A stretch of DNA of 64,000 nt from Pseudomonadota bacterium (lineage in GTDB: Bacteria; Bdellovibrionota_B; Oligoflexia; Oligoflexales; RGVZ01): positions 1 through 64,000 of the forward strand of contig JBEGVZ010000119.1 in assembly GCA_041178085.1 (NCBI GenBank), in the 5' to 3' direction. Shown piece by piece: positions 3,024 to 63,395 of this stretch. Positions within the stretch are counted from its first letter, which is position 1; the number at the start of each line of letters is the position of its first letter. Under the pieces are notes generated by a model. It had not been told where the DNA came from and made no database searches. It saw nothing but the letters and a program-made list of their open reading frames with translations. A program made the position numbers and the translations under genes.

Positions 3024-3284
3024 ATGGCACATAAAAAAGCAGGCGGCAGTAGCCGCAACGGTCGTGATTCCAACCCGCAATACCGCGGAATCAAAGTTTA
3101 CGGTGGCGAATCTGTCGTTGCTGGCAACATCATCGTTCGCCAGGTTGGCAGCACGTTCCACGCTGGTCGCAACGTCGGCCGCGGCAAGGACTTCACGCTG
3201 TTTGCCACGGCAGATGGCGTGGTCAAGTTCGAGCGTCTTGGCAAAGACCGTCAAAAGGTTTCTGTCTACCCTGCGCAAGCCTGA
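3024..3284 (+). CDS. rpmA: 50S ribosomal protein L27
   Basis: [16 protein letters not shown] signature; GAGGAG RBS. Confidence 0.98.
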
Positions 3285-11699: not shown

Positions 11700-11732
11700 G
11701 AGAACCTCCAATTTGAAAGATGGATCTCATTG

Positions 11733-11748
11733 AGCAACCTGCGTGCCA
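11733..11748 (-). promoter_or_regulatory. sigma54 (-24/-12) promoter
   Basis: Minus strand TGGCACGCAGGTTGCT matches TGGCAC-N5-TTGC, about 35 bp upstream of the lipoprotein start. Confidence 0.8.
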
Positions 11749-11847
11749 GTTGAGGTTGGCGGGATTGATGAATTCATAAGTGGGCGTAATGCTTTGGAAC
11801 AGCGGCTAATAAAACCAGATCAGGGGCTCCGCGGCTAGAACGCACCT

Positions 11848-11876
11848 CTGTCAAAAGGCGTGACAGATGACTGTCA
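11848..11876. promoter_or_regulatory. Putative enhancer (UAS) for a sigma54 activator
   Basis: CTGTCA-N7-TGACAG-N4-CTGTCA interlocking inverted repeats 100-128 bp upstream of the -24 box. Confidence 0.55.
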
Positions 11877-11930
11877 AACGCCATCGTACCCATCGGCAGA
11901 TTTCACAATTTTAATAATAAATATAGATAC

Positions 11931-14900: not shown

Positions 14901-15038
14901 GGTGATGACGGGAGGATCGATCTTCGGGTACAGGTCGACACCAATGCGGTTGTAGCCGATCAAGCCGAGCACGATGAGCAGGCTTTCGATCATGACGACG
15001 AAAACGGGGCGTTCGATGCACAGTTTGATAAAACCCAA
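11931..15038 (-). CDS. RND efflux transporter permease (AcrB/AcrD/AcrF family)
   Basis: 1035 aa; ERPVF N-terminus, TM4 GLILDDAIVIRENI, TM10 KNAILLVD, RMRPIVMTT proton-relay motifs intact; TTG start. Confidence 0.96.
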   Translation of the reverse strand: MGFIKLCIERPVFVVMIESLLIVLGLIGYNRIGVDLYPKIDPPVITVTTRYPGAGPEEVEVLVSKKIEDQVNQIGGIERIVSTSQQNISRVVVEFKLEVDAKSAQADVRDKVQRIRSDLPDDIEEPLIERLNFEDRAIATIALKPANSEAANKYNEGVLRLMGEQTVRPLIQRIDGVGQVNVFGGREREVQVHVDRIKLQSFNIGVPEIADAIRKGNINTPSGEISEMPSRRSLRVIGQFANVADISATIVKTLPGGRVVRVADIAQVEDGLKEQTNLVRVGGDPAVLLEVKKQSDANTVSVAEKVLGGLGEMNASLPEGVRLEAVYDGARFIRASVHDVIETIVIAGILAIVVVYFFLGSMQSTLITGLALPCTIVGSFSVLHYMGYTLNIMSLLGLTLSVGLILDDAIVIRENIWAKIEKGMEAKAAALHGTSEVMVAVLATSLTVLAVFFPVTFIPGITGRFFAAFAVTVCIGIILSTFDAVTIAPMLSANVMRKGSLKHLHSKNKALVWFDRQWEYVSNFYAAALRICLRQKGWTVIAAAVFFAISIGLMKQVGFTFLPDDESGEFEVNLEALPGTSFERMSRIAGEVEAQVRKNAPEVAFTSIRVGNELEETNVASVYARMVPFKERSRTTSQVKTAVRQSLRPFTDVEKLTISIRNPGNAGGGRPVTMVVQGPDNDVLRKVSMDLIQAATEKVPGVAGLETNLKPGRQELQVVVNRDNASAFGLRIDEIGQQVRGLYEGIPAGVYRELGEEYDIRVRLKADQRSDALALDGFSMPNDRGAAVPLNTVARAQVGVSPTSIVRIDLKRSARIEGDLVPGFALNDVVTKLRDLAGSMLPPGYSLDFQGQAKSLRDLRAGAVVALGLGALFIYMVMASLYESFILPFSILMTLPLAIVGAILALLVSGKFMDIYGVIGIILLMALVTKNAILLVDYAEQLRAEGMERHDALFTAGTRRMRPIVMTTIAMVAGMLPVAFGYGEINKVRAGMGIATIGGLISSTVLSLVVVPCVYLYLDNVRAWGSRMVARYRET

Positions 15039-15149
15039 AACCTTCGCCCCCCAACCAAACCTTAACGCCTGCCACGTTCCATTCCACTAACGCAACCCCA
15101 GCCGACACGCCACTTTTCATTTGCTCGCGATTCATCTAAGCTGCGCCCC

Positions 15150-16265
15150 GTGCTGGCAAAGCTTTCTAAAATCGTCACCAGATTGTCCACATCATGGCAT
15201 GCCCTGCGGCCCAAACGCAGGCGCGAGGTCACGGCTGGAGTTGTCTGCCTCGTGCTGATGTTCTGGTTGGTTTTGCGCGGCAAGCCCGCAGACATCCGTC
15301 TGGAGCCTGCGGAAGTCACGTTCATGGCCGGGTACACCGACCAAATCCAATGCATGACCCGTCCCCGGGCGCTGGCTGAAACATTTCTTTCGGTTCAGCA
15401 CGGTGGCCGCCTGGACCGCCTCCTAAAAAATCCGGGGGATCCTGTGAAAGCGGGCGATATCATCGCGGTTGTGGATGAGACAGCGAATGCCGCCGGACTG
15501 AAAAGCGCGCTTAGCGGTTTTCGCCACGCCCAGGCTGACGACGGTCGCATTGCCAGCCTCTACCGCAGTGGTGCCGTGACCCGGGAAGAATTTGACGCGA
15601 CCCGCTCGCGCCTTGATGTGAAACGTGCCGAACTCGAGCAAGCGCGCCAGAAAGTCGAAGACGGCATTGTCCGCTCGCCAGTGGACGGAGTCCTGGCAAC
15701 CGTTGTGTTCAAGCCTGGGGACAAAGTTCCAGATGGCGGCCGCGTTGCCGCGGTCGAAGACCCCGAGGGCACCCAGGCGACTTGCCGGATGCCGTCTGAA
15801 TCAGCTGAAATGCTTGCAAAAAATAATGATGAACGTTCGTCTTTATGGACCGTGGTTGATGCCAATCCACCGTTGACGGTGCAGGTTCCCGCCCGCGTGA
15901 CAGTGCTCCAGGCCGAAGGTGGTTTCCGCGGACTGGATGTCGATGTGCGGATCGAAACCAAAGCGCCCCAGGCAAAACAGACCGCAGGCAAACTCACAGA
16001 AATCAAGCTGCCGATGCAGGAGCGCCAGAACGTGACCAAAATCCCCTCGCTCGCTGTCGTACGCCGCGAGGGCGGTTCTTTTGTCCTGATCCAGAAAGCA
16101 GACGGCGCCTATGCGTGGCAAAGAATGTCCATCCTCAATCAAACTGCTCAAGAAACCATCGCTGCCGACATTCCGGTAGGCGCACGCGTGTTCCTGGTGA
16201 AAGACGACCCGACCAAAATCGAAGCCTGGCTCAACGCGCGCAATCATTCGTCAATTCGCAAATAA
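15150..16265 (+). CDS. RND periplasmic adaptor (membrane fusion protein)
   Basis: N-terminal TM anchor, lipoyl halves (GDPVKAGDII / VRSPVDGVL...PGDKV), coiled hairpin, IPSLAVV. Confidence 0.88.
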   Translation: MLAKLSKIVTRLSTSWHALRPKRRREVTAGVVCLVLMFWLVLRGKPADIRLEPAEVTFMAGYTDQIQCMTRPRALAETFLSVQHGGRLDRLLKNPGDPVKAGDIIAVVDETANAAGLKSALSGFRHAQADDGRIASLYRSGAVTREEFDATRSRLDVKRAELEQARQKVEDGIVRSPVDGVLATVVFKPGDKVPDGGRVAAVEDPEGTQATCRMPSESAEMLAKNNDERSSLWTVVDANPPLTVQVPARVTVLQAEGGFRGLDVDVRIETKAPQAKQTAGKLTEIKLPMQERQNVTKIPSLAVVRREGGSFVLIQKADGAYAWQRMSILNQTAQETIAADIPVGARVFLVKDDPTKIEAWLNARNHSSIRK

Positions 16266-16311
16266 AAAGGCCGCCACGGGGTGCGGCGGAGAATCGCCTC
16301 TCCTACAGGCT

Positions 16312-17307
16312 TCAACCTGAGATGGGAATGCCCAGGCCCATGGTCAGCATCCGCCCGGCAATGCTTGAACGATCCGGGCCATTCGTCTCTGGACGAACGC
16401 TGCCGCGTTGCCGGTATTGCACAAAAATCTCGTGGTTGCCCGCCGAACGAATGGCGGAGCCGATGGCAAAGGTGGCTCCGTGAAAGACTGAAGAAAAAGT
16501 ATCAAAGTGACCGTCACCGGTCTGCCGGACAATATCCGCTCCGTAGCCCGCCGTGATCCAAAGGCGAACCCCCGCCGACTCTGCCTGATAACCCGAGTTC
16601 CAGCCGACCGTCAGGCCGCCGTCTGCGGCAACCAGCTGATAAGGATACATGCGGTCTTCGGTCACCACGCCACGCCGCGCGACCATGGCGTCACCCTGAA
16701 AGTAGCCGGCACCTGCCGAAAGGCCCCAGAAGGGAGTGCCAGCGGCTTTCGATCCCCGGAACGGGAGTTCCACCGGAATCTGTGCCGTGGCCTCCGCTGC
16801 AACACCAGTCAAAGTGGTGTCCGACATGATCCGGAAAGTGTCGTCGTCCTTCTCGGTTTCGTAAACTCCGGGCAACCAGTCCCAGCCGGCACCCAGACGC
16901 ACTTGGATACCGCGATGACGTGCAACGCGCTCACGCTCCTGCGCTTGCAAGTCCAGGGAAAGAATTTCGCTGACACGGGCAGAATCAATTGGTTGTAACG
17001 GTTTCGCCGCATCAGCGGCGGACGTCGACGGAGAAGTCGCTGGCTGTTGGGTGGCAGGGGCCGCTTCAGGGGCCTTGTTCACCGGTCGGCGTTTTTTTTG
17101 AATCGAAGGAGCCTTGGGAGCATCTCCCGTTAGATCAGCGGGCGCCGCGGCAGTTGGCGGTTGAGCCGTTTCCGCGCCACGATGACCCAGGGCCCGGTTG
17201 GCTTCATCCAGAAGAGAATCCAGTGAATCACCAGCAGCGAGCGCCGCAGGGGCGATCCCAATGGTCGCGCTTAAAACGAGAATTTTTTTTAATGCTGTTT
17301 TCAACAA
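16312..17307 (-). CDS. Hypothetical secreted protein, probable outer-membrane beta-barrel with Pro/Ala-rich N-terminal linker
   Basis: Signal peptide (ALA-A), low-complexity linker, amphipathic strands, C-terminal MLTMGLGIPISG. Confidence 0.65.
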   Translation of the reverse strand: MLKTALKKILVLSATIGIAPAALAAGDSLDSLLDEANRALGHRGAETAQPPTAAAPADLTGDAPKAPSIQKKRRPVNKAPEAAPATQQPATSPSTSAADAAKPLQPIDSARVSEILSLDLQAQERERVARHRGIQVRLGAGWDWLPGVYETEKDDDTFRIMSDTTLTGVAAEATAQIPVELPFRGSKAAGTPFWGLSAGAGYFQGDAMVARRGVVTEDRMYPYQLVAADGGLTVGWNSGYQAESAGVRLWITAGYGADIVRQTGDGHFDTFSSVFHGATFAIGSAIRSAGNHEIFVQYRQRGSVRPETNGPDRSSIAGRMLTMGLGIPISG

Positions 17308-17330
17308 ATTAAGAAACTCGCAGATCTAAC

Positions 17331-17350
17331 AGTCAAAAGCTGTTTTGACT
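17331..17350. promoter_or_regulatory. Perfect palindrome, candidate operator in a divergent promoter region
   Basis: AGTCAAAA-gctg-TTTTGACT between the divergent genes starting at 17307 and 17421. Confidence 0.45.
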
Positions 17351-17420
17351 TCTATGCCCGCATGATATCCCACTGGCGTTGTGAAAAGTCCACACTTGCT
17401 TGGCTTTCGACGGGGTTCAC

Positions 17421-18803
17421 ATGGTGCGCTTGCGCTCTCTCGGCAGACTCCTGATGGTTTCGGCAATCTTTGCGACCCATGGTTGTGCAAAGGAAACCAG
17501 CGCGGAAAATCGCAAGCGTGAAGAAACCGAGCGGCAATTCAACCGCCTCGAGAAAGCCACTGGCTCTTATCTCGGTTACGCCCTGACGGGCGACGACCAG
17601 ATCACTCCTCTCGAACTTGACCTCAGCGCGGCCCGCAACCCGGTGGAGGGAGACGACAATCCAGCACTGACGGCGACTCTGCGGATAGGATTATTCGGCG
17701 GCGTCAGGATTTCTTCCCGGTCCGTCTCTTACGACTGGGGCTCGGGCAAAATCACTGCCAGCTTTGACCGCAGCGGCGCGGGGGCCTCAGCGGTTCCCAC
17801 CAACGGCGCTGCTGGCCTGGGCTCGGGTGGATCGCGCAATAGCCCGCTGGAACTGCGGGGGATCCTGCGTGACGGCATGATCGAGTCGGCGGAAATTGAC
17901 GGTCCCAATACGGGGAAGACTCCCGTCCAACTTTCGAAGGCCGGACCGTACTTGTTTTCGGACCAGAGGAGCTACACCTACCAGGTGACCTTTGGTACGA
18001 CGCCAGCCCAAATCGATATCAAGCCCCTTGTCAGTCCGCGCGCCGCACCTGGAACATCCGACTTGCCTTTCCTTCCACCGCTTGAAGCATCGATTCGTTT
18101 TTCTGGCAGCGCCATCGTTCCACAAACGGCGACAGACGTGATTTACGAACCGCTCGCAGGCTTTCTTGAGCTGCAACTGCGCGCCGACGCCAAAATCCGC
18201 GTCGACGATCTGTTCCTGACACGCTCCGCCGTGCAAACGGGACTTCATGGCTGGACGCCGCCCGCGCAGTATGCGGGTCAGGTGATCCAGGGCGCGGCCG
18301 TTGTCGGTGATGCAAGATTCTCTGCAAACTTCCCTGGGCTGGGTGTTGCGCCACCTGACACCCTGCGTCAGCTGCCACCCCGTTATTTCACTGGCACTTA
18401 CCGTGGAAATCAAAGTCCCGTCGAGTTCCCGGCCATCGCATCCCTTGAGTACCTGAACACCCAGGGCACCAACTCAGCAGAGTATCCTTTTCCCGCGTTT
18501 CCCAAATTCCGCTTCAAAGTTCTTGTCTGTAGCGGTGGCCGTCCCCTCAAGGAAGGCACGTACGACATGAGCGCCATGAATCCTCTCGATGGGACAGCAC
18601 GCCTGATCGACACCCGCAATACAGTGGTCAGCGTCCTTGACCTGCGTTACGTCGACGACTGGAACCAGCTCATCGGCCGTTTTACGTCCAGCTCCAGTGG
18701 TGCCATCGACACCCGCGATCCGCAATTGCGCGTCTCTGCAACCAGCGGCATAGGTAACGTCGACTGCAGCTTCACGGCGGAGGCCAGGGAGCTTTCGCCT
18801 TGA
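17421..18803 (+). CDS. Hypothetical lipoprotein with about three beta-rich modules
   Basis: Lipobox-like THGC; stop overlaps the TTG start of the TolC gene; start choice (17400/17421/17454) uncertain. Confidence 0.8.
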   Translation: MVRLRSLGRLLMVSAIFATHGCAKETSAENRKREETERQFNRLEKATGSYLGYALTGDDQITPLELDLSAARNPVEGDDNPALTATLRIGLFGGVRISSRSVSYDWGSGKITASFDRSGAGASAVPTNGAAGLGSGGSRNSPLELRGILRDGMIESAEIDGPNTGKTPVQLSKAGPYLFSDQRSYTYQVTFGTTPAQIDIKPLVSPRAAPGTSDLPFLPPLEASIRFSGSAIVPQTATDVIYEPLAGFLELQLRADAKIRVDDLFLTRSAVQTGLHGWTPPAQYAGQVIQGAAVVGDARFSANFPGLGVAPPDTLRQLPPRYFTGTYRGNQSPVEFPAIASLEYLNTQGTNSAEYPFPAFPKFRFKVLVCSGGRPLKEGTYDMSAMNPLDGTARLIDTRNTVVSVLDLRYVDDWNQLIGRFTSSSSGAIDTRDPQLRVSATSGIGNVDCSFTAEARELSP

Positions 18804-51800: not shown

Positions 51801-52696
51801 ACGAATTCACCTTTGACCCTGAATTTGAAGCAGACAAAACTGCGCGCAGCGTCGGCAGCTTGCGTGGTCGCATTGAATCCCTTGGCCCGATCAACATGAT
51901 GGCCCTGCAGGAGTTCGAAGAGCTGACCACACGCGAGAACTTCATCCGCACGCAACAGGATGAGATCAACTCCAGCATCATGCTTCTCAATGAGGCCATT
52001 GGAGAGATCGAAGTTTCCTCGAAAGACAAGTTCCTGGCGACGTTCCACATCATCAACCGCGAATTTGGCCAGCTGTTCCCGATCCTTTTCCCGAACGGGG
52101 AAGGGCACCTGGAACTGACCAACCCGGAAGATCCGCTTGGTGGTGGCGTCGAGATAATGGTCCGCCTGCCTGGCAAAAAGCAGCAGAGCATGAACCTGTT
52201 CTCGGGTGGAGAAAAAGCCCTGACGGCGATCTCACTGATCTTTGCATTGCTTAAGACCAAGCCGACACCGTTCTGCTTCCTTGACGAAGTTGATGCGCCG
52301 CTCGACGAAGCCAACGTCGGCCGCTACAACCGTGTCCTCGATGCGCTTTCGGACCAGTTCCAGTTCATCATCATTACCCACAACCGCCGCACGATGGAGG
52401 TCCTTGACACCCTCTACGGCGTGACGATGCAAGAGCCAGGCGTCTCCAGCATCGTTGGCGTGGACATGAAGAAGGACTTGCCACCTCACTTGCGCAAGGC
52501 GTTCAAGGAAGAGGGTTCAAAGGAGGCCGTCAAGCCGGCTGCTTCGGCGGCTCCGACGACGAGGATCTCTGGCGCCACGGCAGTGGACGAGGGCGAATCC
52601 AGACCAGCTTTGTCGACGGAACCTGTGGAACTTGCCCCGGACTTTGACACGGACATCCCCGTGCCGGTCGAGGCACTGCAGGGCAAACTTGAATAA
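48878..52696 (+). CDS. smc: Chromosome segregation protein SMC
   Basis: GFKSF, GPNGSGKSN, IQQG, long coiled coils, FSGGEKA, LDEVDAPLD, ITHN. Confidence 0.97.
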   Translation: MHLKRITVQGFKSFADKISLTFDRGITGVVGPNGSGKSNIIDAVRWVMGEQNAKNLRGEKATDIIFAGSERRKTMSMAEVSLTFDNTEGASICPPEYRHEPEITLTRRLYADGQREYLINRKPCRLKDIVGFFAMTGLGGRSYSMIQQGQVDRILNAKPEDVREILEEAAGTLLYKQRKIEAQKRLEATNLNLSRVTDILAEIERQKTSLEEQVEKAQKWQEMSTRLREEELLLFAHNFKLFKDKLDEAQAALAEQTTKEAEFLAAVSQYEARYEELQQMLAEADPELAAVVEQISSVREEIARAESSVSNAQTRMDTGANRLRDIGREIQEDAANLAVIEAQVEGATVELSTAEKLATELRRQLEDFQNEVDAVDESAQVFRAKIEEGEDEIRNLTRLIDTNKVRTESTQREIARVEKLIEGENTRRQSLREDVAQALAIVESAQGKAAGQQEGLDVEIREKHSREAAVAARYAQMKEANTTRDTLREKYHESRARLASLQELDEQGATDASASLNKLYETGTVDRANVPGLFAEQIAWNSNSQELPKPATQAFERWAERIVITGVDGLNQVVRAASKAEVTPLPVTLLARSVTLKSNSQFASQVASWASAYDAVPMGEFLRIDSKPHASGEAKSGLEALLSRLYFVPALAMDQATLGEMPAGLIAFTAQGLCITGEDDFLVSGKGGASVLSRKSEQESLAKALKQIEGDLARAQSLIDELELKINEDRAVVTEIDGRLQQQNATVLAIMSELQSAQQVATHKQELLAAQEQTMAELSRQDEQFKSELANLETSRTSLEEELRNAEIELASIREEASGLEERREEVFRQNQQRSVDLAKSEARANALRESFTHARAQQELLQNKLSRRYEEQASLQGDIDAAKNLLEHSQNRIEGLIAQRAELDEKVAEKREAQAGIHEELRVIDSRLKECRDHQAKVQKSLSDKNVQIERATMAISSVTAQAQEKYQLDIATYEFTFDPEFEADKTARSVGSLRGRIESLGPINMMALQEFEELTTRENFIRTQQDEINSSIMLLNEAIGEIEVSSKDKFLATFHIINREFGQLFPILFPNGEGHLELTNPEDPLGGGVEIMVRLPGKKQQSMNLFSGGEKALTAISLIFALLKTKPTPFCFLDEVDAPLDEANVGRYNRVLDALSDQFQFIIITHNRRTMEVLDTLYGVTMQEPGVSSIVGVDMKKDLPPHLRKAFKEEGSKEAVKPAASAAPTTRISGATAVDEGESRPALSTEPVELAPDFDTDIPVPVEALQGKLE

Positions 52697-52983
52697 AAAG
52701 CATTGCTAATCATTTCGCTCGCGCAATGATCTTTGCGTCATGGACGTAGGGAACGTTAACAGTCAGCGTCAACGTCTCCATGGAAACGTCATAGGTGTAT
52801 TGATCCGGGCCAAGGACAGATTCTTTTCCGTCGGCAGCTATCAGGAGCTGGTATTCGTCGGTTATATACTTGGCAGGGACCTGATGGGAGCGGAACAGCT
52901 TCTTTGACGCAAACCCCTGCAACCACGCCAAACCCTTTGAATAGTCGGCCTCACACACTGAGGACCTGAAATCCGCTGCGCTG
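52350..52983 (+). repeat. 634-bp direct repeat, left copy (smc 3' end plus 3' end of the vWA lipoprotein gene)
   Basis: Ungapped match to 59778-60411 at constant offset 7428; about 22 mismatches by manual count. Confidence 0.95.
52710..52983 (-). pseudogene. 3' fragment of the vWA lipoprotein gene at 60138-61985
   Basis: SAAD.RSSVCEADYSKGLAWLQGFASKKLFRS...AKIIARAK is near-identical to that protein's C-terminus; homology stops at 52983. Confidence 0.92.
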
Positions 52984-53096
52984 GCGAGTACACTCACCCT
53001 GGCCTGGTTATCCCGAGGAATTCGTTGCATGGTCGGGTGGCTGTATTAGAAAACGAGTACACTACAATCCAATCACCGGATGTGCAAAAACCAGAT

Positions 53097-53762
53097 CTAT
53101 TGGCATCGCGCTTCAATCATACAACCGTCCTCGTCTGGGGAAACCGAATTAATGAGGCAGCGGCGATCGCTGATCGCAATCTCATCGTCCACTTTGTAGG
53201 CGCCACAACCGCCCGGGACCACCAAATACTGAATCGAAGCGTAGGGCGTCGGACCCTCCAGCGTTAAAGGGCACCGGATGATACCGACGGTCCACTCAGT
53301 CTGCTGCGTTCCCGGTGGTGAAAGGCGCTGACAATTTGAACCATGAGATTGTCCCAAAAGAAAACGATTGGCATTGTAATAGCAACATGTCTCGGTTGTA
53401 CCGTCGGTTTCTGGAACTGGTTCCCCTGGGTCGCAAAACCCGTTGACTGCGTTGATATTGTACTGATCTCGGGGGTAGATCGTACTCAGTAACCCACAAT
53501 CGCGCGGATTCTCGACAGGCAACGATAACTCAATTCTCATGGAGCCCTTTAAGCGGACACAGCAATACATATTTTCTGGCGGACCATCTGACGTTGGCTC
53601 TGGCGTACCTTGCTCAAGCAGGGACAACCGGGAATTCTCGCCCGTAGGATATTCGTTGACCTTCGTCCGTCGATCCAATGCCTCATCCACTGTGCAACCA
53701 TATATCAAACAGACACCCATAGTCCCGATCGCAAATCGGCTAACGAATCTAGAAATGGTCAC
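53097..53762 (-). CDS. Cys-rich hypothetical lipoprotein
   Basis: GTG with GGAGG RBS; LIYGC lipobox; two CC-C-C modules plus further Cys. Confidence 0.75.
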   Translation of the reverse strand: MTISRFVSRFAIGTMGVCLIYGCTVDEALDRRTKVNEYPTGENSRLSLLEQGTPEPTSDGPPENMYCCVRLKGSMRIELSLPVENPRDCGLLSTIYPRDQYNINAVNGFCDPGEPVPETDGTTETCCYYNANRFLLGQSHGSNCQRLSPPGTQQTEWTVGIIRCPLTLEGPTPYASIQYLVVPGGCGAYKVDDEIAISDRRCLINSVSPDEDGCMIEARCQ

Positions 53763-53915
53763 TTAACACCTCCAGAATAACCGAAATATTCAAATGCCAC
53801 CCGACGCGGATAACTAAGCCTAGGTCAGAAGCGCGACCATGCATCATGATTGCATGTTACCTGTCGACCCAACAGCTCTGGGACCAAAAGTCATCCAAAC
53901 ACGGCAGAGTCCTTT

Positions 53916-54260
53916 TCAATCTCCAATCGTCTGAAGGGGACCACTAACTGGGTCAGCTGTCGAAAAGTCAGACGCCAATCCACGCGTATCCGTAAAATTG
54001 CAAGCTGGCGAGGGAAGGTTGGGCGCGGTTGAACCAAGCAAGTGGCATTCCAGCGTCTGGTGACAATGCCCATTAGTAAAAATTTGAAACATCACCTTAC
54101 AGCTCTCTCTCTGGCCCGTCTCGGTGCATCTTTCAAAAATTTGATACAATCTCTCTCGGCACGGGCCGAGATAAGACGTCGGCCCTGACGCAAAACCAAG
54201 GTCCACGATCGACGCAAGTAACGTACATAGAACAAATGCAAAAACCACGAATCTCACCAC
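53916..54260 (-). CDS. Small Cys-rich secreted hypothetical protein
   Basis: GAGGGAGG RBS, hydrophobic signal, six Cys in the mature region; may be prematurely stopped. Confidence 0.55.
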   Translation of the reverse strand: MVRFVVFAFVLCTLLASIVDLGFASGPTSYLGPCRERLYQIFERCTETGQRESCKVMFQIFTNGHCHQTLECHLLGSTAPNLPSPACNFTDTRGLASDFSTADPVSGPLQTIGD

Positions 54261-54540
54261 GTTTGCCCTCCCTCGCGTCGTTAAAACAATAATCTCGGGC
54301 TGACCGTACGGTTACTGGGACCCCAGAGTCCAAAACGTCTTTCCACTCTGACGTCAGCGGTCGGCAAAGCAAAAAACTTAATAAGGCTTTTTCAGTGACA
54401 CTAAATCTCGCGCCATTCCCGGATGTTATCGTGTTCGCCCATTACACTTTATCAAGTGTAGTACGGTCTCCTGTTTGCTGAGGTTTACACGCGGGTGCCA
54501 TCGACCTGGTGGTTGAGCGCTATTTAGTCGCCCGGGATTT

Positions 54541-54702
54541 GTAGGAAATTGAAGCGCGGTTTGGATTCTATGGAACCCACCCTACGCCCCCGCCAATTTC
54601 GTTGGCCCATCCGTTACGCACCGGTATTTCGGGCTTCCCTAGCTATCCAACACCGCCATCATTCGACCAATCCCTGAGCGTCCCCATTTTTTAGTAAACA
54701 CT
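54541..54702 (-). mobile_element. IS91/ISCR-like terminal remnant 1 (oriIS-like end)
   Basis: GTAGGAAATTGAAGCGC at 54541-54557 resembles the ISCR oriIS pattern TAGGAA.TT.AA.CGC; 54616-54702 is nearly identical to 56868-56953. Confidence 0.6.
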
Positions 54703-55014
54703 CGGTGTCTCCATGCTTAATTGATTCTCGACATACGGCGATCACCTAGCTCCTCACACATCAAAATCCCAGAAGCCGTACCCCCCGTATTGTCTCATCG
54801 GACCATTGCACAGGGTTCACTCTTCTCTGGAGCTATCTAAGATCGATGAATTTTTGATGAATCCAGAAAATATTATCAGATTCCCTAAAGTTGGCATGGA
54901 CTCATACCGAATGATTGACCGGATAACAAACGAAGAGGCCTCAAAGAGCAATTGAATGGAAAATTTTTGGTTGAGACCGAGAGCAAGGGTTTCGCAGAAA
55001 CGGAGGGTCAAGTT

Positions 55015-56508
55015 ATGACTCAAAAAATCCGACTGCTCGTCGCGTTGCTTGTCATCTCTGCGTGCGATGCAGATTCAGGGATGACCGGACGCAGCGCCCA
55101 GCCGTCTAGGGTAACAGGGAATCCAACAACGGGTGCTCTTTGGATTGTTGACGGCGAGGAAATCAAAACCGTGGACGATGGCGTTGGGGCTTTGATCAAA
55201 TTTTATGACCCAGCCCCCCAGCCACTAAACACCATGCCGCCCCGAAATCAGCCTATGACGCCGCCAAATAAGTCCATTCTGACCGTCTGCTCGTCTTCGG
55301 AAATTCCCGGGAGAATTAAAGAAAATGGACGCTGCCTTTTGACAGCAGCCCATTGCGTCCAGGAGGAGTGGGGAACTCTCACAAGAGATTTTTTTTATCG
55401 GCAACATTACTACGCCAGGTTCATCGACGGTAAGGGCGACAACCTGGACGAGATTCAAAAGGGTCATGTCAACCGCTCAATCCGAGTCAAGCCTCACCCT
55501 TATTACCGCTTGTCCGTGCAGCAAGTCACATCCGAACCTTATTCCAACATGGACCTGGCATTGGTTTGGCAACGTCCGTATGCATGCAAGCTGGAAAAAG
55601 GTCGCGATTGGGGACACAAATGTGAAGAGAAGGATCCCAATGCAGTCAAAATTCAATGGCACCCTCTTGTGCTCGCATTTGACCGTACAAAGGAAGGACA
55701 ATTGCTGGATCATGTCGGCTACGGCAGATCCAGAATAGATGACGATGATTTCAGCACATCAGGCATTAAGAGACGCGGGCAAACAATTTTGAAAGACGTT
55801 TATGAATCCGACGTAGGTTTGGGAGCTTTCTATATTTATGGAACAATCGAAGGAAAGTCACAAATAGTCGAGAAAGGCGACAGCGGTAGTCCGATTTTAG
55901 TCAATCGGAAAGTTGTTGGTGTAGTAAGTGCGCGACATGAGGCGGGAGAGCGAGGTACCGCCCTCTTTCCGTTTCTCAACCATCAATTCGTAGCAAACGA
56001 ACGAGTATTCGAGCCGGCAAATCAGAAATGGCATTGGGGTGAAGCGGCTAAATTCTGTCGCCCAAAACCCCTCTTATCTTTGGATGTTCAGGTCTTTGCA
56101 GAGGGTTCAGATTCTGCGCAAGTCGTAACCGATTTCAATCGCGGCAACATCGACGTCGAAATTATCGACCCTGTTGAGGAATACGAGAAACGTGCCGGCA
56201 CCTGTGACAAGACCGAGGAGCCAACACAACTATGTTTAGTCGATTCTGTCGTTGAGGAAATCACACTAAAAGCAAAGCCGAAGAATAACTTCCGCTTCAT
56301 ACGGTGGGTATCCAGAATCCCCGGCGCAGAATTATGCCCCTGTGGGAATAGCACATCGACCGAGTGTCGAATCAACACCAACAACATCTCATGGAGGCAA
56401 GAGAACGAAGGGATTCAGTGCGCTGCACAGTTTGATATTGCATCTAGTCCACCGGGATCATGCGATATCCCGTCGCTTTCTGGCACGAGATGCGGTCTCC
56501 AAGACTGA
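55015..56508 (+). CDS. Trypsin-like (S1) serine protease lipoprotein with Cys-rich C-terminal domain
   Basis: GGAGG RBS before ATG 55015; ISAC lipobox; LTAAHC, MDLAL, GDSGSP triad motifs. Confidence 0.9.
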   Translation: MTQKIRLLVALLVISACDADSGMTGRSAQPSRVTGNPTTGALWIVDGEEIKTVDDGVGALIKFYDPAPQPLNTMPPRNQPMTPPNKSILTVCSSSEIPGRIKENGRCLLTAAHCVQEEWGTLTRDFFYRQHYYARFIDGKGDNLDEIQKGHVNRSIRVKPHPYYRLSVQQVTSEPYSNMDLALVWQRPYACKLEKGRDWGHKCEEKDPNAVKIQWHPLVLAFDRTKEGQLLDHVGYGRSRIDDDDFSTSGIKRRGQTILKDVYESDVGLGAFYIYGTIEGKSQIVEKGDSGSPILVNRKVVGVVSARHEAGERGTALFPFLNHQFVANERVFEPANQKWHWGEAAKFCRPKPLLSLDVQVFAEGSDSAQVVTDFNRGNIDVEIIDPVEEYEKRAGTCDKTEEPTQLCLVDSVVEEITLKAKPKNNFRFIRWVSRIPGAELCPCGNSTSTECRINTNNISWRQENEGIQCAAQFDIASSPPGSCDIPSLSGTRCGLQD

Positions 56509-56837
56509 CATCTCGTTTTTTGACCTTTGCGTTATAAACGGGATTGTAGAATTAACGAAGCACCTTGAGACCAGCTCGCGGCAATCTTCCAGGATCATGA
56601 AGGGAGAAGCTAACGGGACTTTAACAAAACTCCCTGAGGTTGCTATCATTGTAGTTAAGAGGCCGAGAGTTGTCTTTGAGGAGTTTAACCCTAAGAACAA
56701 GGTGAAAACTCGGTAGCAGTCGCCAGAGGCGGCGATTAAGTTTATATAAATCAAAAAACCAAAAATTTTCCTTCGCCATTCCCGGATATTCGCCGTCACT
56801 CCAAGACGAGATGCGTCATCGTCTCCCGCGGCCGATT

Positions 56838-57242
56838 GCAGAAAATCAAAGCGCGGCTTGGGTTCTAACGCACCGGTATTTCGGGCTTCCCCAGCTATCC
56901 AACACCGCCATCATTCGACCAATCCCTGAGCGTCCCCATTTTTCGTAAACACTGCCTCACCGGCACCATTTTTCAGAGCGCATACCGCCACCAATTGAGC
57001 AGAGAAATATTCCCAGCCTGGCGACGGCGTCTGATCCGTGCTGGCATCGACTGCAGGATCAGCGTCAAGCCCCATCAACATGGGCTTATAGTAAGACGAG
57101 GCGCATGCGGGGGATCACTGGCAAGTCCGACGTGACGCAGGTAGCGCCGCGCCTCATTCAGGTGGCAGATTGCCGCTACGACGCACAGTTCTCCGCCGCA
57201 AGTGCAGCGGGTGATGTCGATGTTAAAAACACGGGATAAAAG
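56838..57242 (-). mobile_element. IS91/ISCR-like remnant 2: transposase C-terminal fragment plus degenerate oriIS-like end
   Basis: LLSRVFNIDITRCTCGGELCVVAAI...YLRHVGLASDPP matches the IS91-family C-terminal pattern; downstream DNA is shared with remnant 1. Confidence 0.75.
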
Positions 57243-57416
57243 CCCTGATTCGCAAATCGCTATTGCGGCTATTGGGCCTATTGAAAAGAAAAAAAAATTT
57301 CCCTGTGACATCCATCACGAATTGAATTCCAAGAGATGAATTTGGTTGATCTGGCGTAGCTAATCCAATATCAATCGCGCGCTTTCTTAATTAAAAAAAC
57401 GTCATAAAAGGATCCG

Positions 57417-57938
57417 ATGATGAAAGCTTTCCTACGCATCCTCTCTTGTTTTGCTGTCTCCGTTAGCGTTCTAGCCTGCGGTGAAATCCGGCCCGTGGCG
57501 ACCTTGTCTGAAAGCAGCGCCATCGGAGCAAGTGCCGGCGAATTGGCCCAGAAATTGGAAGCTATCATGGAGGGGACCCTTTACTACAGTGAGGCCGACT
57601 ATCCATGGACGGCTTTCCATTCTAGGGTCGCTGTCTCGAAACTTTATGGCGAAAATGAGTTGCGCCTTGCTCTTCGCGTACCAGCAGGCGCACCGATTCG
57701 AGTTTACTCAGCAAACGATACTCGTGAAATCTGGCAATCCCTGCGAGAAGATAATTCCAGCGATCCGCAAGCCGCGACCCGTTATGGAAAACTGCACTCT
57801 GTAATGCATGAAAACCTGCAGGATGTCCGTTTTATAAAAATCGGAAAGGGAGACAGCGGCGCACTGGATTTTTTCGTCGTGGGACGCGACGCGCGCGGAT
57901 TCCTGATCGGGGTGAAAACCATCAAAGTTGAGACCTGA
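57417..57938 (+). CDS. Nuclease A inhibitor (NuiA)-like lipoprotein
   Basis: GTLYYSEADYPW, RY.KL...ENLQDVRFIKIG, FFVVG...G.LIGVKT..VET; VLAC lipobox. Confidence 0.85.
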   Translation: MMKAFLRILSCFAVSVSVLACGEIRPVATLSESSAIGASAGELAQKLEAIMEGTLYYSEADYPWTAFHSRVAVSKLYGENELRLALRVPAGAPIRVYSANDTREIWQSLREDNSSDPQAATRYGKLHSVMHENLQDVRFIKIGKGDSGALDFFVVGRDARGFLIGVKTIKVET

Positions 57939-57963
57939 TCCTAGTTTCCTAGAATCTTTGCCT

Positions 57964-57993
57964 AAGGCTGCCAGTTGATCCTGGCGGCCTTTT
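57964..57993 (+). terminator. Intrinsic terminator after the NuiA-like gene
   Basis: AAGGCTGCCAG-ttgatc-CTGGCGGCCTT followed by TT. Confidence 0.65.
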
Positions 57994-58259
57994 CGCTATC
58001 ATCGGACGAAATTCGATGTTGCCGCCTCACAGAGAAATGCCAACAGTCGTACCTACCTCATGGCCGAGTGGATAAAGGCCACGCACAAGAGTGAAAAAGG
58101 CACCATGACCGAATCCACTTTGGAGCGGTCGCCTTTCCGAATAAACCCATTTAGTTCGGGTTGTTAACCTCGTGCACGCCCTGTTTCTAGGCAAATCATT
58201 CTCGCCCTAATATTCGGTCAAACCATCGAAATCACAGCTAAAGGCGCCATGAAGCAGCC

Positions 58260-58275
58260 TGGTACACGAGCTGCA
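58260..58275 (+). promoter_or_regulatory. Possible sigma54 promoter
   Basis: TGGTACACGAGCTGCA (GG-N10-GC), about 50 bp upstream of ATG 58324. Confidence 0.45.
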
Positions 58276-58323
58276 TCCACAGGCCAATAGTGCGAATTGA
58301 CTTATCGAAGGAGAAACAAAGTC

Positions 58324-58770
58324 ATGAAAAAAATTGTTTTTGTTTTGGGCACATTAGCTGTGGCTGCATGCGGGACAAATCTAGATCAAAGCAATTTGGC
58401 GACCCAGCGTGACACAAAATCGCAAGCCAAGAAGGAAAAAATTGCAAAAATTCCGGGGCTTGTTGGCCAAGATCGACAAGGCCGGCTGGAATTCTACGGG
58501 ATCGATCGTAAGGAGCAAACCATCGCGATACGCGTACCGGTAGTCGACGGATTTTTCACCCAAACTGACATCAAAAAAATGATGGATTGCAGTGTTAAAA
58601 GGCAAACGCACGCCATCACAGTCGAAGTTCACAAGAGCACGCAAACTGGCGTACCCACTGGCATCCCAGGGGTGACGATCGAAACTCACATGCCGAAATA
58701 CAAAAATATTCGCTGTGAAAAAATGCCAGGTTTTCTCGCTGAATGGCGACTGGTAGTCAACGGCCGATAA
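58324..58770 (+). CDS. Hypothetical lipoprotein
   Basis: AAGGAG RBS; MKKIVFVLGTLAVAAC lipobox. Confidence 0.85.
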   Translation: MKKIVFVLGTLAVAACGTNLDQSNLATQRDTKSQAKKEKIAKIPGLVGQDRQGRLEFYGIDRKEQTIAIRVPVVDGFFTQTDIKKMMDCSVKRQTHAITVEVHKSTQTGVPTGIPGVTIETHMPKYKNIRCEKMPGFLAEWRLVVNGR

Positions 58771-58831
58771 AATTGCTCGCACGACAATTGAACTGAAACA
58801 AATAATCCAAATTTTTTTAGAGGAGAGATTT

Positions 58832-59245
58832 ATGCGTAGTTTTCTGGTAACAGCGATGATGGTTTCCGCGGGCGGATTTATAGCATGTAAAAGCGGTTCT
58901 CAAGGGGATCTTTCCTTTTCTGCCAATGCGGCAGACGCTTTGAAATGCAGAGCCCAAATTGAAACTGTACAAGACATCCACCTTGATAACCGAGGTAAAA
59001 CCCTGCAATTGGAACCGCAGGGTGGCGAACCCTTGCTGTACGCAGCGAACGACGCGGGCATTTCATATAATGCGTCGGTCGACGACGAAGCAGGCGTGAT
59101 TGATTTCCAGATTTTCGACAAGACACCCAAGACGGGATTCAAAGCTACATCCAAAGGATTCGTTCCAGACGGCAAGTACCGGCGTAACAGCAGCAAGCTG
59201 GAAGTTACAAACTCCAAGGGCCGTTTCACGATTTATTGCGAGTAG
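58832..59245 (+). CDS. Hypothetical lipoprotein
   Basis: GAGGAG RBS; FIAC lipobox; beta-rich with a Cys pair (LKC...IYCE). Confidence 0.85.
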   Translation: MRSFLVTAMMVSAGGFIACKSGSQGDLSFSANAADALKCRAQIETVQDIHLDNRGKTLQLEPQGGEPLLYAANDAGISYNASVDDEAGVIDFQIFDKTPKTGFKATSKGFVPDGKYRRNSSKLEVTNSKGRFTIYCE

Positions 59246-59408
59246 CAGTCGCTCGTCAGGGCAGGCACCAAACAGTGCCTGACCCTGGCACAGTGAAAGC
59301 CTTGACGCGCGTCGCACCAGGCCAATACCTGCGAATGATATCTTCATCTGCGGATGCCCCGAAAGAGCGCAATAAAATCGGAGCACCAGAAGCAGCGGTA
59401 ACATTGAT

Positions 59409-59662
59409 TTATTCAGGGCCTGGCGAGATCATCTGGTCCGTGCTGGCATCTACTGCAGAACCGGCATCAAACTCCATCACCACCGGCTTATAATGAGGCA
59501 GGACGCATGCCGGGGATCACTGGCAAGTCCGACGTGATGAAGGTAGCACCGCGCCTCATCCTGTTCACAGATTGCCACTACGGCGCGCAACTCTCCGCCA
59601 CAGGCGCAGCGAGTGATGTCGACATTAAAGACACGCGAGAGAAGATTCGCCCAGCTCGACCC
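59409..59662 (-). mobile_element. IS91/ISCR-like remnant 3: transposase C-terminal fragment
   Basis: SSWANLLSRVFNVDITRCACGGELRAVVAI...YLHHVGLASDP; DNA homologous to about 57007-57242. Confidence 0.78.
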
Positions 59663-59777
59663 ATTAAGATCGTCTAGACTAGATATCTTTTCAAGAAACT
59701 CCAGCGGGATGATAAGCAGGGGGGACGTCCCATCACAGGCGATTGAAGCTTGATCTGCTGCATTTTTTGGATTTTGA

Positions 59778-60124
59778 CGGACCAGTTCCAGTTCATCATC
59801 ATTACCGACAACCGCCGCACGATGGAGGTCCTTGACACCCTCTACGGCGTGCCGATGCAAGAGCCAGGCGTCTCCAGCATCGTTGGCGTGGACATGAAGA
59901 AGGACTTGCCACCCCACTTGCGCAAGGCGTTCAAGGAAGAGGGTTCCAAAGAAGCCGTCAAGCCAGCTGCTTCGGCGGCTCCGACGACGAGGATCTCTGG
60001 CGCCACGGAAGTGGACGAGGGCGAATCCAGACCAGCTTTGTCGACGGAACCTGTAGAACTTGCCCCGGACTTTGACACGGACATCCCCGTGCCGGTCGAG
60101 GCACTGCAGGGCAAACTTGAATAA
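59778..60124 (+). pseudogene. smc: Duplicated 3' fragment of smc
   Basis: DQFQFIIITDNRRTMEVLD...EALQGKLE; no 5' part; the H-loop His (THN) is changed to Asp (TDN). Confidence 0.93.
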
Positions 60125-60411
60125 AAAGAATTGCTAATCATTTCGCTCGCGCAATGATCTTTGCGTCATGGACGTAGGGAACGTTAACAGTCAGCGTCAA
60201 CATCTCCATGGAAACGTCATAGGTGTATTGATCCGGGCCAAGGACAGACTCTTTTCCGTCGGCAGCGATCAGGAGCTGGTATTCGCTGGCCACATACTTG
60301 GCAGGGACCTGATAGGAGCGAAACAGCTTCTTTGATGCAAACCCCTGCAACCACGCCAAACCCTTTGAATAGTCGGCCTCACACACTGAGGACCTGGAAT
60401 CCGCTGCGCTG
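59778..60411 (+). repeat. 634-bp direct repeat, right copy
   Basis: Matches 52350-52983. Confidence 0.95.
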
Positions 60412-61985
60412 AAAAGGATTTTAGACTCCGCTGATGGATCTACTGCGCATCCAGAGGCATTTCCTGCCCCCGTGTTGCCGATCACCGAGACTGTAAAATT
60501 TCCAGGGCCAAAAAGGTTTACGGCCCTCGTTCGCAAGAGTGCTGGTAAATCACCGGCGTTGGTCACGCCATCATAGTTTATGAATCCGCCTTTTTGCTGG
60601 CCGTACCATGTGCTGAACCATACTTCGCCACTGAAAATGTCGTCTGGATAGACCTCCTTGAAATAATCGACAACCGATGGATAGGTCTTTCCCTGGTAAA
60701 TGAACGGCGCTGGATTGATGTTATTCCATTCGACGGGCACCGACGATCCGACCTGGTGCGACCATTGAAGCACCGTGTTGCATGTGTCGTTGTCACTCAA
60801 ACGATATTTCCCGGATTGAATCTCTGCGGCGTAGGTTTGCCTGAAATACTGCAAGTAATCTGCCCTCTGTTCGGTTGTGCACGCTTCATGGGAATTCATT
60901 GGTTTCGATGGATCACAAAGTGAATTGATCTTGCACCGTTTTTGTAGCCTTTGGAGGCTAGGCTGGCGGTCGCAATAGCCGTCATTGACAGTGCTGTCGC
61001 ATTTTGCCTGATAATTCATGGTCACGACGGTTTGCAAACTCCTGGCAATGGCATTGGTGTTTTGGTAGGCAAGCACGGTTTGCTTGTTGGCGTACGGACA
61101 GGGCAGTAACCTGCTTGTCTGGTCCTCATCCGAAATGATCAGGAACGCAACGCGGTCCTTGCTGGCAAAGATTTTATTCGGACCATCGTTATCCAGCATG
61201 GCTGCCATGGCGCAAAGAGGCATCTCTTCGGGATTTCCGCGATCTCCCAGGATGATCTCTTGCTTCAGCTTCGACCGCACGGCCGCGAAATCCTGCGCCG
61301 ACATGTTGTCGGTAAATTTAAGGGTCCCGTCCTGGCTGGTGAATCCGGACTGGTTGATGACGAATTTTGTCATGGCCTCTTCCGGGACGAAATCGAGCTC
61401 GTTGGAAGTTGCCGTGATCCAGATGCCACCCTTCCTGACCGTCGGGATGAAGGCAAGGGACGGTTTCAATGTGTCAGAAAGGATCTCGGAATAGTGAAGT
61501 CCAGGCCAGGTTGCGAAGGTGTTACCCAGGGGAAGATGCTTCAGGACATAATTGTTCAGGTAATTTGTCCCAAAAAACTTGAAGGTCCGGTTGAAGATTG
61601 ATGAAGAGTAAAGATAAACGGTCACATTCTTACCGCGGACGCTTTCCATGGCTGAATCAAGGGCCTTCGCCAAGAGCTGTTGCTTCGGCACCATGGACGA
61701 AGAGTCGTCAACAATCAGGACCAGCTTCAAGGGCTCTGACGTGTCATCAAAGCGCAAGTTCAGGGCAAAATCTGGCGCCTTCGCCGGGGCAACTTGCGGA
61801 CGGTCAAGCGGGCGCCCCGTTATCGCGCTTTCGGTCTGTTGGACGATTGCATGATTGTCGGGGCCGTTTGAGTCCGTAATGCCTGAAAACTTAGCGATGC
61901 GAGAACAGGCTGTCGTCGCCAGCAGGCTGGCGATCGGAATTAAGAACTCGAATCGCATCCGGAATTTTAGGCTTCCTCTCAGCAT
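60138..61985 (-). CDS. vWA (MIDAS) domain lipoprotein with Cys-rich insert
   Basis: TTAC lipobox; LVLIVDDSSSM (DxSxS), FLIISDEDQ. Confidence 0.85.
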   Translation of the reverse strand: MLRGSLKFRMRFEFLIPIASLLATTACSRIAKFSGITDSNGPDNHAIVQQTESAITGRPLDRPQVAPAKAPDFALNLRFDDTSEPLKLVLIVDDSSSMVPKQQLLAKALDSAMESVRGKNVTVYLYSSSIFNRTFKFFGTNYLNNYVLKHLPLGNTFATWPGLHYSEILSDTLKPSLAFIPTVRKGGIWITATSNELDFVPEEAMTKFVINQSGFTSQDGTLKFTDNMSAQDFAAVRSKLKQEIILGDRGNPEEMPLCAMAAMLDNDGPNKIFASKDRVAFLIISDEDQTSRLLPCPYANKQTVLAYQNTNAIARSLQTVVTMNYQAKCDSTVNDGYCDRQPSLQRLQKRCKINSLCDPSKPMNSHEACTTEQRADYLQYFRQTYAAEIQSGKYRLSDNDTCNTVLQWSHQVGSSVPVEWNNINPAPFIYQGKTYPSVVDYFKEVYPDDIFSGEVWFSTWYGQQKGGFINYDGVTNAGDLPALLRTRAVNLFGPGNFTVSVIGNTGAGNASGCAVDPSAESKILFSAADSRSSVCEADYSKGLAWLQGFASKKLFRSYQVPAKYVASEYQLLIAADGKESVLGPDQYTYDVSMEMLTLTVNVPYVHDAKIIARAK

Positions 61986-62075
61986 GTAACGGAGTATCGG
62001 ATCCGGGGCGACCGATGCTTACGGGTAATTCGGCTTTACGATTAACCATCCATTATCATTGATGATATTAGACCA

Positions 62076-63395
62076 TCAGAGAGGCTTGTAGGGCTGAAAG
62101 AACTGGTTGAGTCCAAGGGACACACCTGATGTCCTGATTTCGTTGCTCCGACCCCAGCCATAATCGATTCGAAACACCAGCCGGTGAACCTTCGGAATGG
62201 CAATGCGTACACCAGCACCAGCCGAACGAAAGACGTCTTTTTTCGCGTCAGCAAAATCGTCACCTGCGATGCCGGCGTCCGTGAACAGGACTCCTGCCAG
62301 CTTCACAGCGCGTGAAGTAAACACTTCTGAACGCAGTTCGAGGTTGCCGTAGGCGGCAAAGGGGCCCTGACGAATACCGTCTGGAAAACCCCGCACGGAG
62401 TCAAAACCGCCTAGATGAAACACGTTGGAAATCGTCGGCGCCCCGGCAGACTGCATGTAAGCATGTGCTGCCATGTTGAACGTCTGCACCGGGCGCAGGA
62501 AGGCAAATCCCTCGACTTCCGCATAACGAGAATCACCGGGGTTTTCGACACCCGCCGAACGGGACACGCCCCACTTTAAACTTGCACGGACCCCGTCAAG
62601 CAACTGGTCCTCGACTGCCATATTGTCAAACACTGCCGACAGCAGAAGACGGTTCTCAGACGATGCGTCACCTGCCGGTAAATCGATTCCGGTCAAGGGA
62701 CTGCCTTCGATCGAGGGACGGCCGTCGCGCCTGCTCAAAAACTCAAACCCAGCCTGTAAAATCAGCGGATCCAGCGGACCGGTAATAGAATCAATCAACG
62801 AAAAAAGATGCTGGGCGCGGACAAAAGAGCTGTCAAAACCGAGTACCCCCGTTTCGTTTCCTGCTGCGTCATAAAAAGTCCGGCGGCGAAAATCCCGCCA
62901 TAGCTCAATCCCGGCAGAACTCCTGCCCTGTCCAGCGCGCGGAAGTTTTGCCCAGAGCGTGAATCCCGCCGGCGCACTGCCATATTTTTTGGTTTCCGCA
63001 CCCAGGGTGACCAGGCGGCCAAGAGCGTGGGTTTCATAAACCCCGGCGACCAGCAGGGGAGTACCGCCGCCGTAAGCGCCACGCACGACCGGGATGGTTG
63101 TCCATTTTTCTTCCACGTCGATCACGAGGCGACCGTCCGCTAGACGGACGTCCACGCGCAGGAAAACATCCGTAGTCAGGAGTTTCGTGCGGATACGCTC
63201 CAGGTCAGCGTTCGCCAAATCGGCTGGCAAGGCCAATCCAAGATAATGTTTGAGCCAATCCGGATCGGTGCGGGAGATTCCGCGAAATTCAAAATCACGG
63301 GCAACTTCCCCGTAGCAGGAACCCTGCGCAAACAAGAACAGGAAAAATGCGCAGGCATAAGGCAGCGCGCTGCGCCAGCAAGAAAGCCAGCTCAC
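62076..63395 (-). CDS. Omp85 (BamA/TamA) family outer membrane protein with a single POTRA domain
   Basis: FRGISRTD...IDVEEKWT POTRA; LGGFDSVRGF, SAGAGVR, RIDYGWG, QFF. Confidence 0.88.
   Translation of the reverse strand: MSWLSCWRSALPYACAFFLFLFAQGSCYGEVARDFEFRGISRTDPDWLKHYLGLALPADLANADLERIRTKLLTTDVFLRVDVRLADGRLVIDVEEKWTTIPVVRGAYGGGTPLLVAGVYETHALGRLVTLGAETKKYGSAPAGFTLWAKLPRAGQGRSSAGIELWRDFRRRTFYDAAGNETGVLGFDSSFVRAQHLFSLIDSITGPLDPLILQAGFEFLSRRDGRPSIEGSPLTGIDLPAGDASSENRLLLSAVFDNMAVEDQLLDGVRASLKWGVSRSAGVENPGDSRYAEVEGFAFLRPVQTFNMAAHAYMQSAGAPTISNVFHLGGFDSVRGFPDGIRQGPFAAYGNLELRSEVFTSRAVKLAGVLFTDAGIAGDDFADAKKDVFRSAGAGVRIAIPKVHRLVFRIDYGWGRSNEIRTSGVSLGLNQFFQPYKPL

Follow-up and report, generated by a model that had tools for sequence, protein, structure and literature searches.

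We analysed the first 64,000 nucleotides (the window) of contig JBEGVZ010000119.1 (C119) in assembly GCA_041178085.1 of a Pseudomonadota bacterium (here G000), where an island lies between the core genes smc and omp85 and is enclosed by two long direct repeats (Table 1). The two copies (52350–52983 and 59778–60411) align without gaps over 634 bp at an offset of 7428 bp, with 22 mismatches in 634 positions (96.5% identity) and a longest perfect stretch of 73 bp, and homology ends abruptly on both flanks. The initial annotation had given the coordinates, the offset and the lack of indels exactly, leaving the 22 mismatches unstated. It had also read the partition correctly: the left copy consists of the last 116 codons of the intact smc and the orphan 3' end of a convergent vWA-fold gene, and the right copy pairs an orphan smc end with the terminal part of the intact 615-aa vWA-fold gene. 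Both genes are whole, smc matching TIGR02168 at 873 bits and the vWA-fold protein having 615 aa against 622 and 629 aa in its homologues. The two copies enclose about 6.8 kb of extra genes together with three element remnants, and the guanine–cytosine (GC) content between them is 0.49–0.51 versus 0.58 in the flank. Screening the 3.0-Mb genome for direct repeats on the same contig (≥150 bp, ≥88% identity, 0.8–30 kb spacing) returned three, of which the 634-bp repeat is the longest. No tRNA was found in the window, and PF00589 (tyrosine recombinase) and PF00239 (resolvase) have no match on C119, their matches being confined to other contigs. The island therefore lacks the integrase, the short att repeats and the tRNA target of integrase-type islands, its repeats being 634 bp long. 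The earlier label 'integrase-free' is true, but it masks a likely mobile-element cause, to which the three remnants point.

Table 1. Features of the smc–omp85 interval and its flanking genes (positions in the window).
Feature	Position	Strand	Evidence
smc, intact core gene, 1272 aa	48878–52696	+	TIGR02168, 873 bits (cut-off 567); in fetched loci of 6/6 congeners
Left repeat copy: intact smc 3' end and orphan vWA-gene 3' end	52350–52983	+	Repeat alignment
Orphan vWA-fold gene 3' end, about codons 525–615	52710–52983	-	Comparison with intact gene and homologues
Cargo 1, GC 0.51: open reading frame (ORF) 53097–53762 (-), Cys-rich; ORF 53916–54260 (-); no Pfam family	52984–54536		ORFs, Pfam search
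Remnant A: bare oriIS-type end, no transposase left; end faces cargo 1 and left repeat	54537–54702	-	78–79% identity to element ends on C18 and C56
Cargo 2: trypsin-family serine protease, His/Asp/Ser motifs, lipobox-like N-terminus	55015–56508	+	PF00089, E 3.5e-6, above cut-off
Remnant B: degenerate oriIS-type end and last ~40–55 transposase codons, stop at 57075	56834–57247	-	85% aa identity to C80 residues 315–354; 78–82% nt identity to C56, C18 and G002 copies
Cargo 3: NuiA-like protein 57417–57938; small lipobox-bearing ORFs 58324–58770 and 58832–59245	57417–59245	+	PF07924, E 1.6e-15
Remnant C: 5'-truncated, internally deleted transposase tail, no ori	59400–59734	-	77% aa identity to C80 residues 302–354, 65% to 228–247
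Right repeat copy: orphan smc 3' end (H1168D, T1183P vs intact gene) and intact vWA-gene end	59778–60411	+	Repeat alignment
Accessory vWA-fold protein, 615 aa, D-x-S-x-S	60138–61985	-	Homologue alignment, structure model; 0/6 congeners
omp85-family gene, core, converges on smc in relatives	62076–63395	-	Family match, relatives' loci

The three remnants (A–C), all on the minus strand, match an IS91/ISCR element found on contigs C18, C56, C80 and C133 of the same genome, and remnant C ends 43 bp from the right repeat. An alignment extending remnant C towards the repeat gave weak similarity only, the C56 stretch used being without the part needed. The transposase on C80 matches PF04986 at 85 bits (cut-off 20.9) and carries H-x-H and Y-x-x-R motifs (HUH, Y2_Tnp); among NCBIfam models, ISCR_clade_Ia (NF052416, E 6e-59) is its best match and IS91 (NF033538, E 7e-10) matches less well, both under their cut-offs. 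This C80 copy, the only near-complete one in G000, is frameshifted and runs off the contig end. No intact transposase was found in the island or in the assembly (96% complete), and remnants A–C themselves have no Pfam match. A 90%-identical transposase is present in a record labelled Pseudobacteriovorax, with another record labelled Oligoflexales.

The oriIS-type end motif has a single match in the window and none in 100 shuffles; across the family it occurs at 24 places in 7 of 22 genomes, reversed-pattern controls being low. The element end is sharp, with 19–22 of the 24 distinct family matches sharing the next three bases, after which conservation ceases. For strain comparison we used seven runs (X1–X7) of the 11 that contain part of the window; X1 is probably the source run, so it is not an independent sample, and it was assembled by a different route. 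Contigs of X1, X3, X4 and X5 break off at 54539, at the end of remnant A. Compared with the oriIS of ISCR27, the motif agrees at 14 of 20 positions in remnant A, 15 of 20 in the C18 copy and 11 of 20 in remnant B, where it is degenerate. The transposase stop of remnant B is separated from its end motif by 241 bp, and the available part of PMC8894482 places the ISCR27 oriIS 236 bp from the transposase stop.

Read along the transposase strand, the parts of the locus follow each other in the order intact vWA-fold gene and smc-end copy, truncated transposase, cargo 3, second transposase tail with ori, cargo 2, ori, cargo 1, partial vWA-end copy and intact smc. This is the geometry of an ISCR1 complex integron (repeat, 5'-truncated element, ori, cargo, partial repeat), and the same part order is described in the accessible portions of PMC7707992 and PMC13023784. 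In the published ISCR1 model, as outlined in excerpts of these two papers and of PMC3575428, rolling-circle copying that starts at oriIS reads through, a circular intermediate forms, and homologous recombination inserts it. We consider it probable that the island derives from a circle made by an IS91/ISCR element, which carried the cargo together with a 634-bp arm from a sister strain and entered by a single recombination into the matching arm. An element without terIS, fused to the smc end, would have copied past its own end by rolling-circle read-through, picking up a chromosomal arm and, in repeated rounds, one cargo block after another, as the three remnants suggest. The circle would have closed at the ori of remnant A and been rescued by homologous recombination at the arm, leaving smc and the vWA gene whole, and later deletions would have gutted the transposase. 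Single-crossover integration of a circle, as the initial annotation had proposed, is still the best reading, but the remnants as its likely cause had been overlooked; its analogy with ISCR1 proved closer than claimed, as ISCR-type remnants lie within the island in the ISCR1 orientation. The island is thus likely an environmental, chromosomal example of the known ISCR gene-capture route, not a new kind of island.

We surveyed 35 regions around element ends or transposases, of which 32 were left after removal of this locus and two duplicates. Two of them (L097 and L058) have a direct repeat that is not an insertion sequence (IS), longer than 200 bp and 90–94% identical, bracketing an ori. L058 (2234–7878, a record titled Caldimonas) shows a textbook ISCR1-like arrangement, in which the 225-bp, 94% repeat is a gene end fused to a truncated Y2 transposase and followed by an ori at 3166, cargo and a partial copy of that gene end; the longer copy has an additional stop upstream. 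In L097 (G003:C7, 9628–14267) a 235-bp, 90% repeat of a glucokinase gene start has the ori between its copies; the DNA behind the ori has no transposase match and may, judged by eye, be what we take to be an integrase-core fragment. In at least five of the 32 regions (L055, L089, L091, L094 and L107) two remnants on the same strand flank cargo. Family transposase frames of 500 aa, taken to be intact, are present in L073 and L074.

The smc/omp85 junction is a variable site. A survey of the smc 3' locus, as proposed in the initial annotation, found different cargo or a gap of 27–45 bp in relatives: the smc–omp85 distance is 9379 bp here, 45 bp in G003, 27 bp in G005, 2657 bp in G001, 2715 bp in G002 and 2439 bp in G008. 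One large unrelated gene occupies the interval in G001 and G002, and in G004 and G006 other genes follow smc within the stretch fetched. The vWA-fold gene was found in none of the six congeners and in 1 of 21 family genomes (66–100% complete); it is therefore earlier cargo outside the core genome, and the accessory region accordingly spans the whole interval bounded by the stop codons of smc and omp85, 52697–62075. The term 'core-gene junction' used in the initial annotation thus holds for smc but not for the vWA gene. A metagenome scan for vWA-gene loci gave 61 pattern matches, none of them confirmed, and when 52984–53030 was compared with the vWA gene as a possible diverged paralogue, few residues aligned.

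The strains in the compared runs differ from the window by ~2–4% in these genes. A 3026-base contig of X2 leads from an omp85-end copy (62119–62249) through remnant B and cargo 3 and then deleted vWA pieces to omp85, and X4 has the same 62249/57021 joint, which is a different arm at the same smc/omp85 site. This ~3.0-kb unit of X2 may be a circle or an integrated second duplication, of the omp85 end, at that site. We also observed that the two ends of the X2 contig (57021–59402, 61429–61783, 62003–62249) overlap by 30 bases. Cargo 3 pieces recur in runs X2–X7; cargo 1 and 2 are uncovered in X2, X5 and X7, which we do not read as absence. As a separate observation, smc in runs X2 and X6 diverges after 52674 into a different C-terminal tail, and the last smc codons seem to vary with the downstream cargo.

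Several results weigh against an element-made circle. A gap of 43 bp separates the last significant transposase homology from the right repeat, no terIS is definable for the element, and the conserved end triplet is absent at the left repeat end (52983). No element remnant lies between smc and omp85 in the five relatives' loci checked, neither a circle nor an empty site of this strain was observed in the contigs, and 30 of the 32 other regions are without such an outer repeat. PF04986 occurs in 15 of 22 family genomes, so that remnants are common in accessory DNA and are possibly passengers; the part of PMC3189936 available to us derives most IS801 fragments from rearrangements. In a different explanation, the arm was doubled by additive recombination between two strains' versions of the hypervariable smc/omp85 site (through transformation, transduction or unequal exchange), and the IS91 remnants are cargo debris with no role. 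With remnants so common in the family, such a passenger model stays a real rival, and it is further consistent with the different, remnant-free cargo of G001, G002 and G008 and with arm differences that look allelic. We nevertheless regard it as unlikely, given that all three remnants are oriented as the ISCR1 model requires, with one of them close to the repeat, that L058 and L097 repeat the geometry, and that the X2/X4 joint again links a core-gene end copy to a remnant.

The differences between the copies speak to the origin of the arm. The 22 differences comprise 10 synonymous, 11 non-synonymous and 1 intergenic change; 10 in ~144 synonymous sites versus 11 in ~468 non-synonymous sites is a threefold synonymous bias (Fisher p 0.015). 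Five of them fall within 8 bp (p 0.0006, simulation), and at this cluster the orphan resembles homologue P0002 more than the intact gene does. Because the differences are biased to synonymous sites, an arm donated by a sister strain, followed by a degree of decay, fits them best. Decay-type changes in the orphans number four (smc H1168D and T1183P; vWA S530F and Y558H), one of which hits a conserved His in what we take to be the H-loop of the smc ATPase. Such changes would also be expected had the smc/vWA junction been duplicated in tandem within this lineage, with insertions brought in by elements later separating the copies, deletions trimming the structure and the copies diverging in place. 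Run X5 shares three left-copy letters, which would fit the ancestral state under local duplication, and when decay is taken to account for every one of the 11 non-synonymous changes, 6.8 synonymous differences are expected and the excess is not significant (p 0.15), a further point against the sister-strain arm. Assuming 4–5 decay changes, however, ~3 synonymous differences are expected and 10 are seen (p 0.0003–0.001), and the 8-bp cluster with its orphan nearer a homologue argues in the same direction, making local duplication quite improbable. An assembly chimera of two co-occurring strains is more improbable still. The assembly is a short-read metagenome assembly and no compared contig spans the whole stretch; in X1 the two vWA-end allele contigs have depths of 15.8 and 10.7, which sum to about the flank depth of 26–27, and cargo 1 and 2 have 18–20. 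Yet each of the four repeat edges is covered by an X1 contig free of differences, the collapsed repeat contig has a depth of 36 in X1, which fits two copies near 25, the 73-bp longest identical run is short enough for read phasing, and no branch joint inside the island is listed for X1. The neighbour piece shared by the two allele contigs has a depth of ~28 (by subtraction). The right fusion, in which remnant C meets the orphan smc end, was met again in at least one further sample: in X6 a contig runs across 59777/8 with 30 letters on its short side (comparison word length 31), and contigs of X5, there with a 2-base insertion, and of X7 cover 59762. The repeat is real, and contigs across its edges make an assembly artefact improbable. 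The coverage check suggested in the initial annotation was equivocal: island contigs of X1 have depths of 18–25 against 26–27 in the flanks, which fits either a bias in coverage or a minority of cells that lack the island, and an empty site would be invisible at word length 31.

Whichever way it formed, the island is more likely a largely stable relic than a switch, because no intact transposase was found, the arms have diverged without homogenisation, and different samples share the right fusion. The 'switchable cassette' of the initial annotation is hence unsupported, with arms 3.5% diverged and orphan ends showing decay. RecA excision across the 73-bp perfect stretches is possible in principle. 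Tandem ISCR1 units change copy number in culture according to the accessible text of PMC13023784, which does not report those arms as diverged. It is doubtful that the smc/omp85 junction of these freshwater bacteria acts as a live landing pad, at which rolling-circle circles from sister strains would integrate via whichever gene end they carry (smc in X1, omp85 in X2/X4) and RecA would excise them, so that the population would switch sets of secreted or surface proteins without an integrase.

We then compared the island with known systems. Like ISCR1 complex integrons, it has a full gene-end copy, a terIS-less element, an oriIS facing cargo and a partial second copy, following the route of Toleman et al. 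2006 as given in the available sections of PMC7707992 and PMC13023784. The arm of those integrons is qacEdelta1-sul1, whereas here it is a chromosomal smc/vWA junction, 96.5% identical between copies, and the marks of a complex class 1 integron are missing: there is no PF00589 match on C119 and there are no integron integrase or cassettes. Those integrons carry resistance genes, while this island carries protease, NuiA-like and lipoprotein-like genes, and it holds three remnants with the transposase reduced to tails. ISCR2 (ISVsa3) units such as ISCR2-catD-tet(X4)-ISCR2, as far as described in an excerpt of PMC7722449, likewise hold cargo between same-strand, often partial copies, as do cargo 2 and 3 here and regions L089, L091 and L055; in contrast to such units, this island is without an intact element, remnants B and C are old, sharing 80% identity, and the outer repeat is host DNA. 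The IS801 right-end fragments of Pseudomonas syringae, in the portion of PMC3189936 at hand, are similarly short, ori-side IS91-family pieces scattered in accessory DNA, and DNA beside them can be mobilised. The remnants here differ in being known from sequence alone, the only near-complete copy of G000 being the frameshifted, contig-cut one on C80.

The route is already published for resistance loci, and no new mechanism is involved. No literature on this locus or on such duplications in this order of bacteria was found among accessible papers, and a study of sul4 hosts was alone in joining IS91 with Oligoflex. If the origin from an element-made circle is true, the island is a chromosomal, non-clinical case of the ISCR1-complex-integron route in which an ordinary core-gene end serves as the homology arm, and non-resistance cargo would move between strains of a wild population. 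It would also speak for regarding the clinical structure as an instance of a general means of inserting genes without target breakage. The element here is dead.

The serine protease and NuiA-like genes were each found in none of 21 family genomes (66–100% complete). A simple lipobox pattern is matched by three of the six cargo ORFs, and a surface location is predicted for these proteins. The NuiA-like nuclease-inhibitor gene has a signal-like N-terminus, and a partner nuclease was not seen in the island. In the vWA-fold protein D93, S95 and S97 of the D-x-S-x-S motif are invariant in an alignment of 19 sequences, although Pfam vWA matches are weak and limited to 3 of the 19 members. Its structure model has a pLDDT of 85, and Foldseek matched the model best to vWA pilus adhesins (E 7e-6) and to integrin beta chains, at a low TM of 0.2–0.25 over the whole chain.

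Some further observations concern the element and its genome. By eye, ~54411 and ~56774 share a short stretch, which lies just beyond the ori end of remnant A and of remnant B, respectively; this may be chance or point to an insertion site used in common. We also considered whether the element end holds a dif-like site, which is not supported, the island having only five loose one-mismatch cores; a strict dif core pattern has no site in G000, and the host dif was not located. In G005 (11 motif matches) and G003 (5) the oriIS-type ends all finish in the same three bases, several of them at contig ends, and these element ends probably represent a recently active subfamily. The other two direct repeats of the genome screen lie on contig C7 of G000 (11232–18178; 158 bp, 98% and 252 bp, 91%) among small toxin–antitoxin-like genes, and no IS91 remnant was found at them. 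On C56 (796–4255) and C80 (1500–2633) of G000, transposase relics are adjoined by genes that, from their translations, encode an AAA ATPase and small antitoxin-like or helix-turn-helix proteins.

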